From: an uncultured Candidatus Saccharibacteria bacterium
GTDB lineage: Bacteria; Patescibacteriota; Minisyncoccia; Phycocordibacterales; PALSA-1337
DNA: 64,000 bases
Assembly: GCA_964412585.1 (NCBI GenBank)
Contig: CAYPPJ010000004.1
Coordinates: forward strand, 9,825 to 73,824
Direction: 5' to 3'
Part shown: positions 13,066-61,305 of the stretch, piece after piece
Numbering within the stretch: position 1 is the stretch's first letter
Layout: every line of letters begins with the position of its first letter
Position numbers and translations under genes: made by a program
The notes under the pieces: model-generated
What the model was told of the DNA's origin: nothing
What the model saw: the letters and a program-made list of their open reading frames with translations, nothing else
The model's database searches: none

Positions 13066-14094
13066 TTAATTCACCCATTCAACTTCACCTTCAATCACAA
13101 TCCCTGTTTTTTCTTTGACCAACCTCATGAGCTCATGTGCAAGTTCAACAACTTCTTCTGATGTTGAACCTGGTTTCGTCACAAGAACAAGTGCCTGCTT
13201 TTCATACACACAAGCATTACCTTTACACAGTCCTTTTACATTGCACACCTTATCCAGAATCCAGCCAAGTGAAACTTTGACGCGACCATCGGGTTCTGGA
13301 AAACCCGGTAATGCAGGATACGTATTCTTAAGTCTCATAAAGTCATCCGATGAAATGATCGGGTTTTTGAAAAATGAACCAGCAGTCCCCCACAACTTCC
13401 AATCTGGCAGTTTGCCCCAACGTATCGAAATCACAGCCTCTCGCACATCCCTGAGCGTTGGTTGGGCAATGTTCTTTTGCATAAAATAGTCAGCCACATC
13501 CTTGTATGACATGTTGAGCACGCCATGAGGGTCGAGAGCAAAAAATACGCGAGTGATGATATATCTGCCTTTTTCTTTTTTAAACACACTGTCTCGATAT
13601 GAAAATGCGCAATCAGCATTGACCAAATCAACAAACTGTTTTGTCTTAGTATCAAACGCTCGCACATTACTGACTACGGACCCCACCTCAGCGCCATATG
13701 CTCCGATATTCTGAACTGGCGCGGCACCGACAGTTCCAGGGATAGCCGACAGATTTTCTATACCATACAAACCACGCTCGACCGCATAGTCGACAAAATC
13801 ATCCCACTGTTCACCAGCACCTGCAGAAATAATGCGTTTGCCAACACTCCCTTCTTCAATTTTCTCCTCGATACCCATGAGTTCCATCTTGATGACAAGC
13901 CCACCAAATCCTTCGTCACCGATGAGAAGATTTGATCCTCCCCCGAGTATGAACAGTGGTAGGTCTTTGTCACGTGCAAAGTGTACCGCCTCTACGATAT
14001 CAGCCTCAGTTGTCGCACTACAAAAAAAGCGGGCCGGTCCGCCAATTTTGAATGTCGTGTAAGCAGCCAAGGAAATATTCTCTTGTATCGTCAT
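13066..14094 (-). CDS. murB: UDP-N-acetylenolpyruvoylglucosamine reductase
   Basis: FAD-binding N-terminus YTTFKIGGPARFF...ILGGGSNLLI and 342 aa, as expected for MurB. Confidence 0.88.
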   Translation of the reverse strand: MTIQENISLAAYTTFKIGGPARFFCSATTEADIVEAVHFARDKDLPLFILGGGSNLLIGDEGFGGLVIKMELMGIEEKIEEGSVGKRIISAGAGEQWDDFVDYAVERGLYGIENLSAIPGTVGAAPVQNIGAYGAEVGSVVSNVRAFDTKTKQFVDLVNADCAFSYRDSVFKKEKGRYIITRVFFALDPHGVLNMSYKDVADYFMQKNIAQPTLRDVREAVISIRWGKLPDWKLWGTAGSFFKNPIISSDDFMRLKNTYPALPGFPEPDGRVKVSLGWILDKVCNVKGLCKGNACVYEKQALVLVTKPGSTSEEVVELAHELMRLVKEKTGIVIEGEVEWVN

Positions 14095-14269
14095 GGGTGT
14101 GAATGAAAGTTCGGAAAAGTATATAGTTGTTTGCGCCGAATGATGGCGACGGGTGCGAGCTCCAAAATAAAATGTTTAAATTTAATGTGAGTACAGCCGT
14201 CGCCGTCATTTGGTACAATTCTGCCTTTTAGTATAACTTGACAAGAGCGTGCCATGCAAGTGGTGGTGA

Positions 14270-14378
14270 ACCCAAGAGCACGGCACAGGTGTGTCAAAGC
14301 GGAAATAGTAGCTACCACTCGAACCGCATACCACATCGTTTATTGTAGCGGCGACACACCTGTGCCGTGCTCTTGGGT
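14270..14378. repeat. Long hairpin element A: perfect 26-bp inverted arms (ACCCAAGAGCACGGCACAGGTGTGTC / GACACACCTGTGCCGTGCTCTTGGGT) around a 57-nt centre that contains the core ACTCG...GCATACCACATCGTTTA
   Basis: Read directly from the sequence. The centre shares a 16/17-nt core with element B at 56093-56204. Confidence 0.6.
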
Positions 14379-14430
14379 CAGATCTCGCGTCGGAAATTTC
14401 TACCGGCTTGCGCCGTCAGAAATCTTTCGA

Positions 14431-14478
14431 CGTGAATTTTGCAATACAAAATTCACGCAAAAGCCCGCCGAGGGCGGG
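14431..14478 (-). terminator. Two adjacent hairpins: the palindrome CGTGAATTTTG-CAATA-CAAAATTCACG, and a GC stem CCCGCC-GAG-GGCGGG followed by UUUUG on the minus strand (candidate intrinsic terminator)
   Basis: Read directly from the sequence within the 549-nt non-coding gap between the TPR membrane-protein gene and murB. Confidence 0.4.
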
Positions 14479-14577
14479 ACTTTGCGAAACATTTATTTTC
14501 TGGAGAGTGCCCACACGGGTACTCACGTCAGTATACTACCATATTTAGAGCATAGAATCAAGGCATCTCTGACCAAG

Positions 14578-14633
14578 TTATCCCCATAGAGGGGATTGCT
14601 CCGCTCGGCAGCCTCGCCGGGTTATCCCCATAG
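14578..14633. repeat. Direct repeat GTTATCCCCATAG at 14578-14590 and 14621-14633; the first copy is part of the palindrome ATCCCC-ATAGA-GGGGAT. TTATCCCCA resembles a DnaA box (TTATCCACA) with one mismatch
   Basis: Read directly from the sequence. Confidence 0.3.
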
Positions 14634-14643
14634 GGAAATAGTC

Positions 14644-17052
14644 TTATTGGGTAACTTTCACCTCCTGAATCTGCTTTATGACCGCATCTACCTGATCTTT
14701 GTATTCAGGATGATCTTTTGCAATCTTGCGGACCAATTCTATTGCTTCCCATTTCCTATTGGCAAGAGTATATACCTCAACAAGTTGCATGCTCAACGGA
14801 ACACTCGTCGGATCGCGCTCGAGAAGTATCTTAAACAGGGCGATTGATTTATCGTATTGCTTGATTACCGCATATGCGTGTGCAGTACGATCATTTTCGA
14901 AGAGATTCATAGTCGATGACGCGACCGCCCGTGCTTCTGTATCACGTTTTGCAACCACGAGACCGAGTATGTATGCCTGCTTTGCATCTTGGAATGTCGG
15001 ATCAGCTTCGTACGCCTCTTTGAGAAGTTTGAGAGCGTCATCAATACGATTTATGCCGAGATAGACATTGGCCAACTGAATAGCAACCGTCTGTTTGTTC
15101 GGCGTAAGCTCATGAGCTTTTTCGAGTATAGGGAGTGCTTCGGCTGCCTGATTGAGGTTGCTCAAGAATGAACCCGCCAGCACGTATCCGCGCGCATCGC
15201 GAGGGGCGTATTCCATCTGCGCCTTTATCTGTTGAAGTGCGAGATCATAAAATGCCTGCTTGGTAGGACCTGGGTACTGTCGCGCGACAATGCCACCTGC
15301 GCATGACAAAATCTGTTCTCTAACCTCTTGGTCAGCTGTTGCTGACAGCGATAACGATTTGGTAAATAATTCCGGATCAGGAAGTGAGTTGCGTGAGCCA
15401 CATGATATCAGGGCATCGATCAGACGTGTATTGGCCTGAATCATGCGGACATTGAGGAAATACATACCACCCACAAAGATGATAATGGCAACCGGTAAGA
15501 CAATGTATTCGACCGCTTCAAGACTGAACGATTTTGATGATGCGCTTTGATCTGCACGCTTCGACGAAGCAGAGCCAGCGAAACCAAGAAGTGCAAAGAA
15601 GAATATGTAGCTTGCCAAGTTATCGAAGACAAAGAAGTTGTGTATACCATATCCTATCACCAACCCCGTAAGTACACTCTTTTGTGATACTGATAATGAC
15701 GATCTCCATACTGCAAGAATGATGAGAACATACAATGCAAGATACACAATAAGACCGACAGCACCTGAGGCAACCAGCCAATCAAGATACACATTGTGTG
15801 CTCGATCGAACCATTGCTCCTGATTCCACATCTTTGGATTGTAATTTGCGTTAAAGATGTAGTTGAAGTTTTCCTGACCCCATCCGAGGATTGGTCGCTC
15901 AGTAAAACCTTTGAGAGCCATGGGCCAAATATAGGCGCGAGCCTGCGTCTTCGTATCGGTAAGAGAAATTGAGGCAATACGATCGAGTGATGGGCTGTTT
16001 TTGACAAACGAAGCATCCTTTACCAAGTAGAATACTCCGCCAAGAATAAAGAACAATGCAATAATGCCGATACTGATCCAGCGACCACTACGTGCTGCTG
16101 GATACGGAACACTGCCTCGATTTTTGATCACATATACAATAAGAGCTATGAAATATATGAGTGCGAGAAGCGCCAACCACCATACCGAAAGTGCAAACAA
16201 TCCGAGGGCTAGCACGAACAACGCATACAGGGCGACGAGGAAAGGAAAACTCAAGATAATCAAAACCTTTTTGTAGTTCACCCCATTTACAAACAAGGCA
16301 TATGACGCACATGTCGCCACCAATCCTATTGCGAGTCCGATCAGCGTACCGCGAGTCTGTGTGAGAAGAATAATAATCGCAAAAATAATAGACAGTATCG
16401 GATATGCCCACTGAAGGAAACTGGCATTGGCAATCCCTTTTGCGCGAGCAACAAAAAACAAATACATTGAAACACCGATATGCATGAGCAAATACACAGC
16501 CAGGTATGCCGCGTTACCGAGTGAAGCATCCAAACGGGTACTACCCTGATGAATCTCTGCCCAACCGAACTGTTGGCACAGAGCATAGATAGTCACAATC
16601 GAAGCAATAACCAACGAGGTATTGAACCAACGGTGCCACAAACGCTTGCCCTCTTCGCCTGCTCCAAAGATACCTGATGCTGACATGAAGAAAGCCCACA
16701 AGTGCGCGATGACCAACCAACCTTCCATACGCTCAAAGTTCGACATGAGACTGCGGACAATGTTCACACCGAGAAGATCAGCCACCAAAGCTACGACCGC
16801 AAACAAGGTGATCCCTATGGTGAGCGCATTGAAACGAGGACGATAACGCGCATCGAGAAACGCAAGAACAGCCCAACAGACCAAGGCTATTTCAACCAAG
16901 ATGCGGAAATAAAAGGCTTTGCCTGTAATAAAGGGGAAAAACATCCCGTCAGGAAAATTGAGCGGCCATACGGGTGTTGGAAATAAGGCAAATATCGGAA
17001 TGAGAAACAGTGCTGACAGGCCAATAGCTCGAAGTATTTTCTGGAGATTCAT
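14644..17052 (-). CDS. Large polytopic membrane protein with C-terminal TPR repeats (O-antigen ligase / Wzy_C-like; candidate glycan polymerase, ligase or O-oligosaccharyltransferase)
   Basis: 802 aa with more than 10 predicted TM helices in the first 500 aa or so, then TPR-like repeats (AYEADPTFQDAKQAYILG..., ALKLLKEAY...). The family assignment is inferred from architecture. Confidence 0.5.
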   Translation of the reverse strand: MNLQKILRAIGLSALFLIPIFALFPTPVWPLNFPDGMFFPFITGKAFYFRILVEIALVCWAVLAFLDARYRPRFNALTIGITLFAVVALVADLLGVNIVRSLMSNFERMEGWLVIAHLWAFFMSASGIFGAGEEGKRLWHRWFNTSLVIASIVTIYALCQQFGWAEIHQGSTRLDASLGNAAYLAVYLLMHIGVSMYLFFVARAKGIANASFLQWAYPILSIIFAIIILLTQTRGTLIGLAIGLVATCASYALFVNGVNYKKVLIILSFPFLVALYALFVLALGLFALSVWWLALLALIYFIALIVYVIKNRGSVPYPAARSGRWISIGIIALFFILGGVFYLVKDASFVKNSPSLDRIASISLTDTKTQARAYIWPMALKGFTERPILGWGQENFNYIFNANYNPKMWNQEQWFDRAHNVYLDWLVASGAVGLIVYLALYVLIILAVWRSSLSVSQKSVLTGLVIGYGIHNFFVFDNLASYIFFFALLGFAGSASSKRADQSASSKSFSLEAVEYIVLPVAIIIFVGGMYFLNVRMIQANTRLIDALISCGSRNSLPDPELFTKSLSLSATADQEVREQILSCAGGIVARQYPGPTKQAFYDLALQQIKAQMEYAPRDARGYVLAGSFLSNLNQAAEALPILEKAHELTPNKQTVAIQLANVYLGINRIDDALKLLKEAYEADPTFQDAKQAYILGLVVAKRDTEARAVASSTMNLFENDRTAHAYAVIKQYDKSIALFKILLERDPTSVPLSMQLVEVYTLANRKWEAIELVRKIAKDHPEYKDQVDAVIKQIQEVKVTQ

Positions 17053-55535: not shown

Positions 55536-55988
55536 TTATTTCGTGTGCGGCTTGGTCCGTTCTGGGTCGAGCCGAAGGTTCATCGCGGCATCGTGATCGG
55601 CGCCGAACGAATGGGTCAAGGTCCGAGTGGCGTTCGTGCGCTGTTCACCCAGACTTTCACGGAGCTTCTTCTCATCATCCGTCAGGAAGTTCAAGGGAAC
55701 TGCCATCAGTTCGTCCGGATGAGCCTTGAAGAGCTTGAACCGACGCTCGAGGGTGGCGTCATCCAAGCCCGTCCACCGACGGTTGAACAGTTCGTGACGT
55801 TTTTCTTGTTCAACTTGCCACGCCGGCTTTCCATTTTTCATTCCGAGGATGGCCGCCAGATTTGACGCACCATGAACTCGTCCCGCTGCCTGTGCTTGTA
55901 CCATTTTTCTTGTGTGTGTTGACCGAGTTTGCAACACGACCTCGAAAACTTTTTTATTTGAGGTATCGTGCTGGGACACTGCACTCAA
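55536..55988 (-). CDS. Hypothetical protein, GC-rich (compositionally foreign)
   Basis: 150-aa ORF with no recognisable motif. GC is clearly above the flanking DNA. Confidence 0.45.
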   Translation of the reverse strand: MSAVSQHDTSNKKVFEVVLQTRSTHTRKMVQAQAAGRVHGASNLAAILGMKNGKPAWQVEQEKRHELFNRRWTGLDDATLERRFKLFKAHPDELMAVPLNFLTDDEKKLRESLGEQRTNATRTLTHSFGADHDAAMNLRLDPERTKPHTK

Positions 55989-56092
55989 GGAGGAAAATCA
56001 GCAACACGAGTCGCTGACGAGAGCTATGTCCGGTATAAAATACTACCACTTATACCAAAAAGCGCAAGTAGTATCAATAACTGTAAACAGCT

Positions 56093-56204
56093 AGCACACA
56101 GGGGCGCACACCTCCTCTTTCTTGAAGTGTAGAATGGTTTCACGTACTCGGCACACCACATCGTTTACACGCAAAGAAAGAAGAGGTGTGCGCCCCTGTG
56201 TGCT
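56093..56204. repeat. Long hairpin element B: 31-bp inverted arms with one mismatch (AGCACACAGGGGCGCACACCTCCTCTTTCTT / AAGAAAGAAGAGGTGTGCGCCCCTGTGTGCT) around a 51-nt centre containing ACTCG-GCACACCACATCGTTTA
   Basis: Read directly from the sequence; begins 6 nt after the stop of the glycoside-hydrolase-like gene. Confidence 0.6.
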
Positions 56205-56209
56205 TTGTT

Positions 56210-57499
56210 TTATTTCTTCAACAATGCATTCTTGTCATACACACTCGCTGCATTCCACAGCATCCAGCTCGTTAGTCCAACATCATATGTTGCCTGAATC
56301 TGTTTGCGGACCATTTCTGGCGTATATATCGCGCCCAGGTCAAACGCCTGCAACCATGGTCTCAACTTATTTTTGTCATACGTCTTTTTTGTATACAGCT
56401 GAGGACTTGTTGACGCGATCGGTTCTTCTGCGAGCAACAAAGATTTTGTCGTTGTTGAAAGTGCTTTTTTAACCGCACTCGACATCGACGAATAAATAAT
56501 CTCGTACGGATGCTGGGCAGGTTTTGCATAGCCATCAAAGCCTGGACCAAAATGAGATGGATAGACCATTGGTGCCACATAATCAAATGAATCAAGTGCG
56601 TACTCGAGTATCTGTCCGATACCCAAGTCGCCTTCCGCACTAGTCGTCAGGCCGAATAGGTCAGCTGATATTGGGATGCCAGAGCCAACAAACTCATGGT
56701 GCATAAATGCGTAAAAATCTTTGATGATCTCCGTTCGTTGACGCCCTTCGGCCCAGCTGTATGAAATGTCCTCCAAATTTCCATCTGATGGAAAACGAAT
56801 GTAATCGAAGTTAAGCTCATCAAATCCGGCAGCATACGCTTCACGACCAATACGCGCAGCATATTCCCACACCGGCTTGGCTCCCGCATCAAGCCATTTG
56901 ACTCCTTTGAAATCTTTCCAAACCCCCCCTTCTTTTGTTTTGACTGCCCACTCAGGATGCACATTCATCATGTATGAATCTTGAAATACTGAGATACGCC
57001 CGATAACATAGACGTTCTTTTTGTGGAGCTTATCAATAAACTCTTTGATATCCGGAATACGATTTTCTGATGCTCCAATCTTCGCTAGTTCTGGATCCTC
57101 AACGTTGAAACTGATGCGTCCTGTGTAATCTTTGACATCTATCACCACAGCATTTACCTCGGTAGTATCGACAAGATCAAACAAGTGAGGACGAAACTTT
57201 GAACTTCCCGCCGCCCAGCTCGACATGTAGATACCTTTGAGCGGTTCAGGCGTATTGACATGAGTAACCACAAACGCTGGCGGCGTTGTCGAAGCAGTCG
57301 CCAAAGTCGAAGAGGCGTTGAGGACAGTTGCCGTTGTTGATGTGGCAGCCAACGACCCATTGAGTCCGATTGAGGAGTATGAAATAGAGCCCATTGGCAA
57401 AAACCATGCAACAAAGAAGCCTGCAACTACTATGACAAAAGCGGCGAAAATAATCGTCGTCGCCCGAGTCGCGCCGATCTCACGCCACAACTCTCTCAT
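56210..57499 (-). CDS. Signal-anchored putative glycoside hydrolase (DUF4015 / GH-like TIM barrel)
   Basis: N-terminal TM anchor followed by GIYMSSWAAGSSKFRPHLFDLVDTTEVNAVVIDVKDYTGRISFNV, which resembles the putative-glycosyl-hydrolase DUF4015 family. Confidence 0.5.
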   Translation of the reverse strand: MRELWREIGATRATTIIFAAFVIVVAGFFVAWFLPMGSISYSSIGLNGSLAATSTTATVLNASSTLATASTTPPAFVVTHVNTPEPLKGIYMSSWAAGSSKFRPHLFDLVDTTEVNAVVIDVKDYTGRISFNVEDPELAKIGASENRIPDIKEFIDKLHKKNVYVIGRISVFQDSYMMNVHPEWAVKTKEGGVWKDFKGVKWLDAGAKPVWEYAARIGREAYAAGFDELNFDYIRFPSDGNLEDISYSWAEGRQRTEIIKDFYAFMHHEFVGSGIPISADLFGLTTSAEGDLGIGQILEYALDSFDYVAPMVYPSHFGPGFDGYAKPAQHPYEIIYSSMSSAVKKALSTTTKSLLLAEEPIASTSPQLYTKKTYDKNKLRPWLQAFDLGAIYTPEMVRKQIQATYDVGLTSWMLWNAASVYDKNALLKK

Positions 57500-60436: not shown

Positions 60437-61213
60437 ATGAATACCAAAATCCTCTCCAACCGAGCCCTTTCTGTTATCGATCAGTACCTCAATTTCAAGG
60501 TAGGACCTGCAGTGTGCTCGGTTCCTTATTTCAACAATAAAACTGCCAAACTTCGTGGCGCACTCGCGGTACATGCAGGCAAAGGAAGTCCGAAAGAAAT
60601 ATGTGAGGAAGTCCAATCCATTTTGCTCAAAGCACATACGACAGAAGACTCTCTTACTTCTGAATCACTCAAAAAAATTCTTGCTGATAATACTATTGGC
60701 ATCGATTGTTCTGGCTTTGCCTACTATGTTCTCAACGCGGAAAGTGAGGAGGCTGGAAAAGGACCGCTCGACAAGCACATCTCTTTTGTTCAAGCGACCG
60801 GATTATTTAGAAAATTGATTGCCTCATGGCGTCCTGTCGGAAATGTTGGAGTATCGACACTGGCTCACAACAACAATAGCCACATCATCAATCTTAAGGA
60901 CATCCAGCCTGGATCTCTCATCACGATGATCAACGACGCCGAAGAAAGCGAGCGTGACCACATTCTCGTCATCCATCAAGTTGAATACCAAAACTTCATT
61001 CCCTACAAACTCCACTATTCACATGCTGTCGCCTATCCCGAAGATGGCATTTACGGCACCGGCATCAAGCAAGGAACTATTGAGATAACCGATATAAACA
61101 AACCAGTCACCGAACAAGTCTGGACCGAAAATGGTCGACAAGGCGAGGCCAATCGTATTTTTCAAAGGGCCCTCAAATCAAAAACCGAGATTCGCAAACT
61201 CAACTGGTGGTAA
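60437..61213 (+). CDS. Hypothetical protein
   Basis: 258 aa with no recognisable motif. Confidence 0.45.
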   Translation: MNTKILSNRALSVIDQYLNFKVGPAVCSVPYFNNKTAKLRGALAVHAGKGSPKEICEEVQSILLKAHTTEDSLTSESLKKILADNTIGIDCSGFAYYVLNAESEEAGKGPLDKHISFVQATGLFRKLIASWRPVGNVGVSTLAHNNNSHIINLKDIQPGSLITMINDAEESERDHILVIHQVEYQNFIPYKLHYSHAVAYPEDGIYGTGIKQGTIEITDINKPVTEQVWTENGRQGEANRIFQRALKSKTEIRKLNWW

Positions 61214-61305
61214 GCGCGTAACAACACCTATTTTAATTGCCGAGGACTGTCTGAGCGAAGCGAGTTCCGCAGGCAGATTAAAATAGGTGTTGTGGAGCGC
61301 GTAAC
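61214..61305. mobile_element. MITE-like element C: 17-21-bp inverted arms (ACAACACCTATTTTAAT / ATTAAAATAGGTGTTGT) around a 39-nt centre, flanked by 9-bp direct repeats GCGCGTAAC (61214-61222 and 61297-61305)
   Basis: Read directly from the sequence. The direct repeats look like a target-site duplication. The element sits between a stop codon and the mraY start. Confidence 0.45.

Follow-up and report, generated by a model that had tools for sequence, protein, structure and literature searches.

The 64 kb window studied here is the whole stretch of DNA that was analysed, 64,000 nt of contig CAYPPJ010000004.1 from an uncultured member of the Patescibacteria. It includes two intergenic palindromes, here named element A (14270-14378) and element B (56093-56204), that an earlier reading of the letters alone (the original prediction) had singled out as long hairpins with a short sequence in common. 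A Pfam scan of 29 open reading frames (ORFs) indicated that the window encodes SecA, MurB, a Wzy_C/TPR protein and a large glycan-synthesis cluster, and the genes around A and B are murB, the Wzy_C/TPR gene, a DUF4015 gene and a gene for a TrwB-like ATPase. No tRNA or tmRNA genes were predicted within the 64 kb window. The closest named genome is the Candidatus Taylorbacteria metagenome-assembled genome (MAG) GCA_023269245, represented here by contigs L020 and L077/L078, and contigs near-identical to the window are present in several JGI and Logan metagenome assemblies. As the elements recur across independent assemblies from four sources (JGI, Logan, NCBI and ENA), they are not assembly artefacts. 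Patescibacteria have tiny genomes with scant room for junk, and to our knowledge almost nothing is known of their non-coding elements.

Elements A and B

The perfect 26 bp arms around a 57 nt centre that had been described for A were confirmed; its orthologs are L076:1414-1522 and L077:4714-4828. The left arm (14270-14295) pairs perfectly with the right arm (14353-14378); the inner 12 bp are invariant among the orthologs, whereas the outer half is variable, with its changes matched on both arms. Element A has an inner stem, GCTAC/GTAGC, and its centre (14296-14352, given for the + strand) contains an 8 bp palindrome, GTAGCTAC, and three GTAG motifs. A motif search placed ACTCG (14317-14321) and a 17 nt core, GCATACCACATCGTTTA (14326-14342), in this centre (14317-14342 in all, + strand), and B has both of these motifs too. 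A 111 aa ORF on the + strand that spans A was rejected as a coding sequence, as it is not preserved, the frames of A and B differ and the loop is flipped in L077.

Element B, the ortholog of which is L020:2430-2541, has 31 nt arms (56093-56123 and 56174-56204) with one mismatch, as predicted, around a centre (56124-56173, + strand) that measures 50 nt and not the 51 nt originally given. The centre includes an inner stem, GTGTA/TACAC (56127-56131 and 56166-56170), ACTCG (56146-56150) and the core GCACACCACATCGTTTA (56151-56167). The single arm mismatch is C.A on the + strand and G.U on the − strand, which is the gene-sense strand. Pairing resumes after a 3x3 internal loop, extending the stem to 39 nt at 90%.

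That both elements form strong hairpins was borne out by folding: predicted energies range from −63 to −73 kcal/mol, with z values of −8.8 to −12.7 against shuffled sequences, on either strand. The window contains two copies of the core, GCAYACCACATCGTTTA, and no more: one at 14326-14342 and one at 56151-56167, each on the + strand. As had been claimed, the 16/17 match between the two centres is not due to chance, since none of 5000 shuffles reached 16/17 and 11 reached at least 14/17. The distance from the core to the right arm is 10 nt in A and 6 nt in B, and ACTCG lies 4 nt upstream of the core in A and immediately upstream (0 nt) in B.

The view that the arms of A and B are unrelated has to be given up. 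Within the window the termini of the two elements do differ, but the L020 ortholog of B combines the centre and inner stem of B with A-like outer arms, and it is the only B copy that has the outer arm of A. These L020 arms, ACCCAGGGGCACGGCACAGGT, match the A arm, ACCCAAGAGCACGGCACAGGT, at 19/21 positions; they differ from those of B at about 8/32 positions and are still perfectly self-complementary. As a B centre is found with A-like arms in L020, A and B are best explained as diverged copies of one small family, arms included. That TAAACGATG in the core might mimic 16S rRNA, over a putative match of 10 nt, was considered and dropped.

Placement directly downstream of a stop codon, originally given for both elements, applies to B and not to A. 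Element B begins 5 nt past the TAA of the minus-strand DUF4015 gene (56210-57499), and 25 nt separate its other end from the −35 of the minus-strand promoter that comes next. As no terminator lies in the 5 nt between that stop codon and B, B must, judging from this arrangement, be transcribed within the DUF4015 transcript. Read on the + strand, B has a promoter-like site before it and TTTGTTTTATTT after it. Element A is 266 nt beyond the stop codon of the Wzy_C/TPR gene, past a conserved promoter-plus-terminator unit, and an intrinsic terminator thus precedes it; its distance to the −35 of the murB leader promoter is 10 nt. A third hairpin, C, described below, shares this type of site, and in A, B and C alike 10-25 nt lie between the end of the element and the −35 of the co-directional promoter that comes next. 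They were rejected as intrinsic terminators: read in the direction of the flanking genes, none of the three is followed by a T run, and B has one on the + strand only.

Two non-coding blocks, 14458-14561 and 14119-14226 (both on the − strand), flank A and hardly vary among five genomes that reach down to 76% MurB identity. In the former, a promoter (TTGATT-N17-TAGTAT) and an intrinsic terminator make up a small unit; the latter is the murB leader, in which a 13 bp stem encloses a 45 nt loop. They are complementary in two segments (GUGAGUAC with GUACUCAC, and CUCCAGAAAAUAAAUGUUU with AAACAUUUUAUUUUGGAG) and look like a small RNA (sRNA) and its neighbouring target. Neither block had an Rfam match, and an RNA duplex energy test gave a z of only about −2. 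Downstream of B (55905-56068, − strand) is a conserved promoter, TTGCGC-N16-TGGTAGTAT, and the leader behind it opens with CCGGACA and includes a variable hairpin, the motif AUUCCUCC and a closing UGUCC. This pattern holds in L020, L071, L072, L074 and L084, with apparent covariation, and 55905-56068 resembles a structured 5' leader, which would belong to the small gene at 55536-55904.

Conservation and stem evolution

Orthologous loci were collected via the flanking proteins, and third codon positions of the flanking genes served as a near-neutral yardstick. Third codon positions in the window are 46-51% identical to those in MAG GCA_023269245, 71% identical to those in L076 and 91% identical to those in L075. 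Element A is identical at 107/109 positions in the window and L076 (third codons 71%), and the two differences make up one compensated base pair. The B centre and inner stem are identical at 65/67 positions (97%) in the window and L020, where third codons share 51%. In the outer arms, identity drops to about 75%. Conservation is highest at the tip and falls outward to the termini, which are the most variable part, and this is the reverse of the pattern in a miniature inverted-repeat transposable element (MITE), as the original prediction had pointed out. The apical 50-65 nt change far less than synonymous sites, and we conclude from this excess of identity that the elements, chiefly their apical parts, are under constraint.

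Stem pairs were analysed in five sequences with 29 pairs (143 paired cells) and compared with 500 shuffles. Fourteen of the 29 pairs have changed on both sides and none has changed on one side only; 94.4% of cells are paired, a result that no shuffle equalled (0/500). Not one of the 143 paired cells has a one-sided change of the G-U type, and transversions are frequent among the double changes. RNA-selected stems normally display G-U intermediates, and their complete lack here suggests that the arms are kept identical at the DNA level. The conserved interior and compensatory stems that had been proposed stand as apical conservation and as stems that diverge while remaining paired; covariation of the RNA type, with its one-sided changes, does not.

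Relative to its flanking genes, the A centre is turned round in L077 (44/57 matches to the + strand of the window and 20/57 to the − strand), while in L076 it has the same orientation as in the window. As the flanks of A in L077 are homologous (GCGTGATGG... on one side and ...TCACCAC on the other), A is at the same site there and its loop has been flipped between the arms. The blocks AGCGGAAATAGTAGCTACCAC and CGTTTATTGTAGCGG of A are intact in L077, and the approximately 18 nt between them, including the 'core', have been replaced by CCTCTCCGCAGCTCTTCA. At the positions that distinguish A in the window from its L077 counterpart, the window copy agrees with B. Either the L077 sequence may have been overwritten, or A in the window may have been converted from B. 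Taken together, the wobble-free changes, the inverted loop and the replaced core fit an inverted repeat maintained at the DNA level better than classical RNA covariation.

Distribution and other hairpins at the same sites

Element A is present in the window, in L076 (93% MurB identity) and in L077/L078 (82%), which belong to the same MAG as L020; L080 (76%) lacks it. The syntenic ortholog of B in L020 is likewise found just downstream of the DUF4015 gene, and behind the same gene in L071, L072, L074 and L084 (80-85% protein identity) B is absent. Alignment with these empty sites indicates that B is an insertion 5-8 nt past the stop codon, while the surrounding spacer of the elements cannot be aligned among relatives. 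From this pattern of presence and absence, both insertions date to the common ancestor of the window species and MAG GCA_023269245, and A and B are insertions restricted to the clade of the window species and its closest relatives. Two ideas were dropped on the basis of this alignment: that the arms had been copied from host sequence beside the elements, and that the empty sites are remnants left by deletion of B. A CCACAGG..CCTTGTGC sequence in the empty sites resembles the ends of the B arms, but the alignment places these bases with the spacer downstream of B.

When a covariance model built on five copies of the A/B elements (R1) was run over 217 kb from the window and its relatives, it recovered the copies already known and nothing more. 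The original prediction had called for further copies or homologs with covarying stems; such homologs exist, but only as orthologs at the same two loci, and the collections scanned gave no further copies. ACTCG plus the core returned one true match among GTDB species genomes, in L020, and one chance match in a Bacteroides coding region. In IMG/VR the core 17-mer had 13 matches, none in a hairpin and at chance level, and patterns for the arm pair and for the centre had none. The 49 matches to the 17-mer in the JGI metagenome collection, which evidently lacks samples holding this organism, were all due to chance, the best flanking inverted repeat being 8 nt. A blastn search against phages and plasmids gave no match. 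Rfam models had no matches in the window at gathering thresholds, and the best below threshold were generic hairpin models (c4-2, 23.5 bits against 41); known Rfam RNAs and ribozymes were rejected, as none reaches threshold.

Hairpin C (61211-61303) has 17 bp perfect arms (61221-61237 and 61277-61293) around a 39 nt centre. Its architecture and its site, after a stop codon and before a promoter, are those of A and B; it lacks the core, and R1 gave no match to it. It is a lineage-specific insertion of about 100 nt between a gene for a 258 aa protein and a Glycos_transf_4 gene, which in L072 and L074 are separated by a 38 nt spacer, so that presence/absence polymorphism at syntenic sites is seen for all three of A, B and C. 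Copies of AGCGCGTAAC on both sides of C are a possible target duplication, but they overlap a GCGC palindrome.

The A site is bounded by the conserved small transcription unit, which has a terminator of its own, and by the promoter of the murB leader. It bears a strong hairpin in every lineage examined: A, a second type of element (family 2) or, in L080 (9786-9829), a 17 bp perfect stem with a cUUCGg tetraloop on the gene-sense strand. This loop is an RNA-stability signature and suggests that the A site needs an RNA hairpin. Family 2, a hairpin of about 130 nt with a three-way junction, occupies the A site in L075 (1774-1900) and in the same-species contigs L087-L092 (L087:9385-9530). It forms a T-shaped junction with two perfect 10 bp sub-hairpins, and its conserved centre reads CTCGGTAC ... 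GTCCTC ... AATTTTGTGCTCAAAATT ... TGYGGATGTACCTCGAA. At another locus, in L072 (16018-16150), a family-2 copy has this centre in common, while its sub-hairpins are compensated and its outer arms unrelated. The four arm mismatches in family 2 are all C.A on the gene-sense strand and so G.U on the antisense strand. As judged from these copies, family 2 repeats the pattern of A and B, a conserved tip on a free stem. Two small hairpins, H2 (about 14384-14424) and H1 (14431-14457), lie between A and the upstream terminator (14384-14457 in all) in the window allele only; the H1 stem-loop, CGTGAATTTTGTATTGCAAAATTCACG, resembles sub-hairpin 2 of family 2, with AATTTTGT..CAAAATT in common.

At the hairpin site (region 14085-14655), the identity of the window to L087 steps from 99.77% (9.4 kb, Wzy side) to 97.56% (3.2 kb, murB/secA side). 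The A and family-2 alleles were therefore exchanged between co-occurring strains by homologous recombination with a breakpoint there, and the replacement of one by the other is not due to fresh transposition. Metagenome contigs stop inside such hairpins, L082 15 nt into a B arm and L094 7 nt into a family-2 element, which implies that the palindromes break assemblies and will be under-represented in MAGs. Diversity-generating retroelements (DGRs) with bAvd and reverse transcriptase genes are found in the syntenic neighbourhood (L074:3864-5305 and L083:486-1932), and a hairpin sits behind a putative DGR target gene in L074 (3447-3484). A link between A or B and DGRs was rejected, as this hairpin, with its 17 bp stem and 4 nt loop, is of a different type.

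Possible roles and relation to known systems

Our leading interpretation, which is tentative and in our estimate falls just short of an even chance, is that A and B are clade-restricted palindromic foldback elements of about 110 bp, REPIN- or MITE-like DNA elements in the intergenic regions of a Candidatus Taylorbacteria lineage within the Patescibacteria or candidate phyla radiation (CPR). Complementarity of their arms would be upheld in the DNA itself, through hairpin-templated correction or through template switching from arm to arm rather than by stepwise compensation in RNA, while the apical part would be under sequence constraint at the level of the host. Once transcribed, an element would form a duplex of 26-39 bp (31-39 bp for B), and this duplex may mark the boundary of a transcription unit, acting as a barrier to 3' exonucleases, as an RNase III site or as an insulator against read-through into the next promoter. 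Such a boundary role is the most economical function, and we infer it from the like role reported for REP, ERIC and Correia sequences. The shared 17 nt core would then reflect common descent, possibly refreshed by conversion between copies, and would not be an autonomous motif.

Several observations weigh against this interpretation. With the patterns used, no other copies were found in GTDB representatives, the JGI collection or IMG/VR, nor did R1 add any in the window and related DNA, and with only two paralogous insertions to hand, repetitiveness and mobility are matters of inference. None of the 29 window ORFs scanned with Pfam matched a transposase, a RAYT (Y1_Tnp), an invertase or an integrase, and no shared direct repeat that could be a target-site duplication flanks A or B. 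The terminal inverted repeats are not conserved among the A/B copies, as they would be in MITEs, and variable ends with a conserved centre are the opposite of REPINs, in which the ends are invariant. Nor, on the strand of the flanking genes, does a U tract follow any of the hairpins. If the role at the boundary were purely structural, it would leave both the strong apical conservation and the survival of the 3x3 internal loop of B in both species unexplained, and because it cannot account for the apical constraint, a structured RNA and a protein-recognised DNA hairpin stay live as rivals.

A dedicated structured non-coding RNA is possible but doubtful. It would be either a cis-acting element in the 3' untranslated or intergenic region or an sRNA released by RNase III, in which the loop (ACUCG...GCAYACCACAUCGUUUA) or its complement binds a protein or a second RNA and the long closing stem needs only to pair. 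Apical sequence conserved far above the synonymous level on a stem that covaries, with conservation declining outward from the tip, is what such an RNA predicts, and the internal loop and inner stems covary between A and B (GCTAC/GTAGC against GTGTA/TACAC). B is apparently carried in the DUF4015 transcript, its sole mismatch would be G.U in the gene-sense RNA, and the promoter-like site and TTTGTTTTATTT bracket it on the opposite strand; the unrelated family-2 elements, too, have a conserved centre and compensated sub-hairpins. However, none of the 143 paired cells has a wobble change, no Rfam family reaches threshold (the best, c4-2, scoring 23.5 bits against a gathering threshold of 41) and a perfect duplex of 26-31 bp is unusual among stable bacterial RNAs. 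A lies downstream of an intrinsic terminator. In L077, moreover, the same promoter would yield the complementary loop, as the loop is inverted relative to the flanking units, and the 'core' itself is replaced.

The strictly Watson-Crick arms on both strands, without wobble states, and the tolerance of either orientation implied by the L077 flip would suit a DNA hairpin or cruciform that is the site for a protein encoded in trans; an HUH/RAYT-like nuclease, a recombinase and factors for replication or segregation are examples. Such a protein would recognise or cleave the conserved apical sequence, which the arms would extrude in single-stranded DNA, and nick-and-copy cycles would rewrite one arm from the other and also invert the loop, as in the 'flip-flop' of parvovirus terminal repeats. 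The palindrome GTAGCTAC and the three GTAG motifs in the A centre could be read in this light, as could the T-shaped junction of family 2 with its two perfect 10 bp sub-hairpins. We nevertheless consider such a site unlikely: neither the neighbourhood of the two copies nor the 29 scanned ORFs yielded a candidate protein gene, sequences this short would contain as many GTAG motifs by chance, the single flip observed is between species and nothing indicates nicking or excision.

It is improbable that A and B are functionless old insertions, with arms made perfect by template switching during replication (quasipalindrome correction) and a core that is residual similarity or a conversion patch. 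Double changes without intermediates and an inverted loop are the expected dynamics of a palindrome at the DNA level. B has been lost or was never gained in close relatives with no visible consequence, A has been swapped for a different hairpin in strains of the same species, and the agreement of window A with B where it departs from L077 A is compatible with a conversion patch. But self-correction of arms cannot keep orthologs alike, and A is 98% identical where synonymous sites share 71%, the non-palindromic centre of B is 97% identical where they share 51%, and the flanking non-functional spacer is unalignable.

TIGR stem-loop arrays are found in parasitic (CPR-like) bacteria and phages and have variable palindromic stems with short conserved motifs in their loops; their units form tandem arrays beside a tas (Nop-domain) gene and have two 8-12 nt spacers flanked by box C/D (PMC12045711). 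Solitary guide-RNA units of this kind, or of the IS110 bridge-RNA kind, are barely credible here: although A and B also have variable yet palindromic stems and loops with conserved motifs and variable segments (the 18 nt block between conserved blocks in A orthologs among them), and the A loop has TACCAC twice and one CCA-N10-UG segment that fits box C, spacer and box D, both elements are solitary with no tandem arrays, no tas or IS110 gene was found nearby (29 ORFs scanned), the box pattern CCA-N(8-12)-UG is present in one of four half-sites (the first in A and both in B fail), the stems are 26-31 bp and not short, and no window sequence matches the loop on either strand with up to 3 mismatches.

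A further possibility, doubtful but deserving mention, is that A and B together with family 2 belong to an undescribed class of CPR hairpins in which a constrained apical module is carried on a stem that is free in sequence and always perfect. A nick-and-copy process, or a protein or RNA partner that binds the hairpin, could regenerate the stem and invert the loop, and the elements could then be functional rather than decaying MITEs. Should the apical module have a partner, it would add a new element, acting in cis or in trans, to the gene organisation of the CPR; should it have none, the double changes without intermediates and the loop flip would be a clean natural example of palindrome maintenance at the DNA level. 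Either way, this is a hairpin family conserved above synonymous sites, with a pattern the reverse of that in MITEs and REPINs and with alleles swapped between co-occurring strains, and in practical terms such hairpins break metagenome assemblies.

Compared with other known systems, A resembles an inverton in being a segment flanked by inverted repeats just upstream of a gene and found in both orientations (window and L076 against L077). In contrast to invertons, only 57 bp separate the 26 bp repeats, no invertase is nearby, there is no convincing internal promoter and the flip is between species. Integron attC sites have R'' and R' boxes with the consensus RYYYAAC and GTTRRRY, extrahelical bases and an integrase nearby. 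The ends of A, ACCCAAG and CTTGGGT, match this consensus at 6/7 positions, while those of B and of the L020 and L077 elements do not; the stems are perfect, without extrahelical bases, no integrase was found among the scanned ORFs, and attC was rejected.

The Correia elements of Neisseria (CREE/nemis) and the ERIC/IRU elements of enterobacteria are 100-160 bp imperfect intergenic palindromes with inverted ends of about 26 bp. They are inserted near promoters and co-transcribed with their neighbours, and the hairpin in the RNA is a substrate for RNase III that alters mRNA stability. Both have conserved terminal repeats and hundreds of copies, and Correia elements have TA target duplications. 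A and B have no known sequence similarity to them and differ in their variable termini, the lack of an evident duplication and low copy number. REPINs are doublets of REP sequences, about 100 nt long, that form hairpins and are mobilised by RAYT transposases; their ends are invariant 16-mers, consisting of REP and GT[A/G]G, around a less conserved spacer (PMC3116915). Like REPINs, A and B are intergenic, about 100 nt long and made up of two inverted arms and a spacer that are predicted to form one long hairpin in single-stranded DNA or RNA; they also share with them compensatory changes on both sides of the hairpin (PMC3116915), an extragenic position near gene ends and presence or absence between strains. 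They differ in that their arms are not themselves palindromic REPs and in number, as REPINs reach tens to hundreds of copies and flank the RAYT gene, whereas two copies and no RAYT were seen in the 64 kb. On the basis of their common ancestry, ancestral insertion, intergenic sites, presence/absence pattern and hairpin architecture, A and B appear closest to the palindromic intergenic repeats of the REPIN, Correia and ERIC kind, while belonging to no named family.

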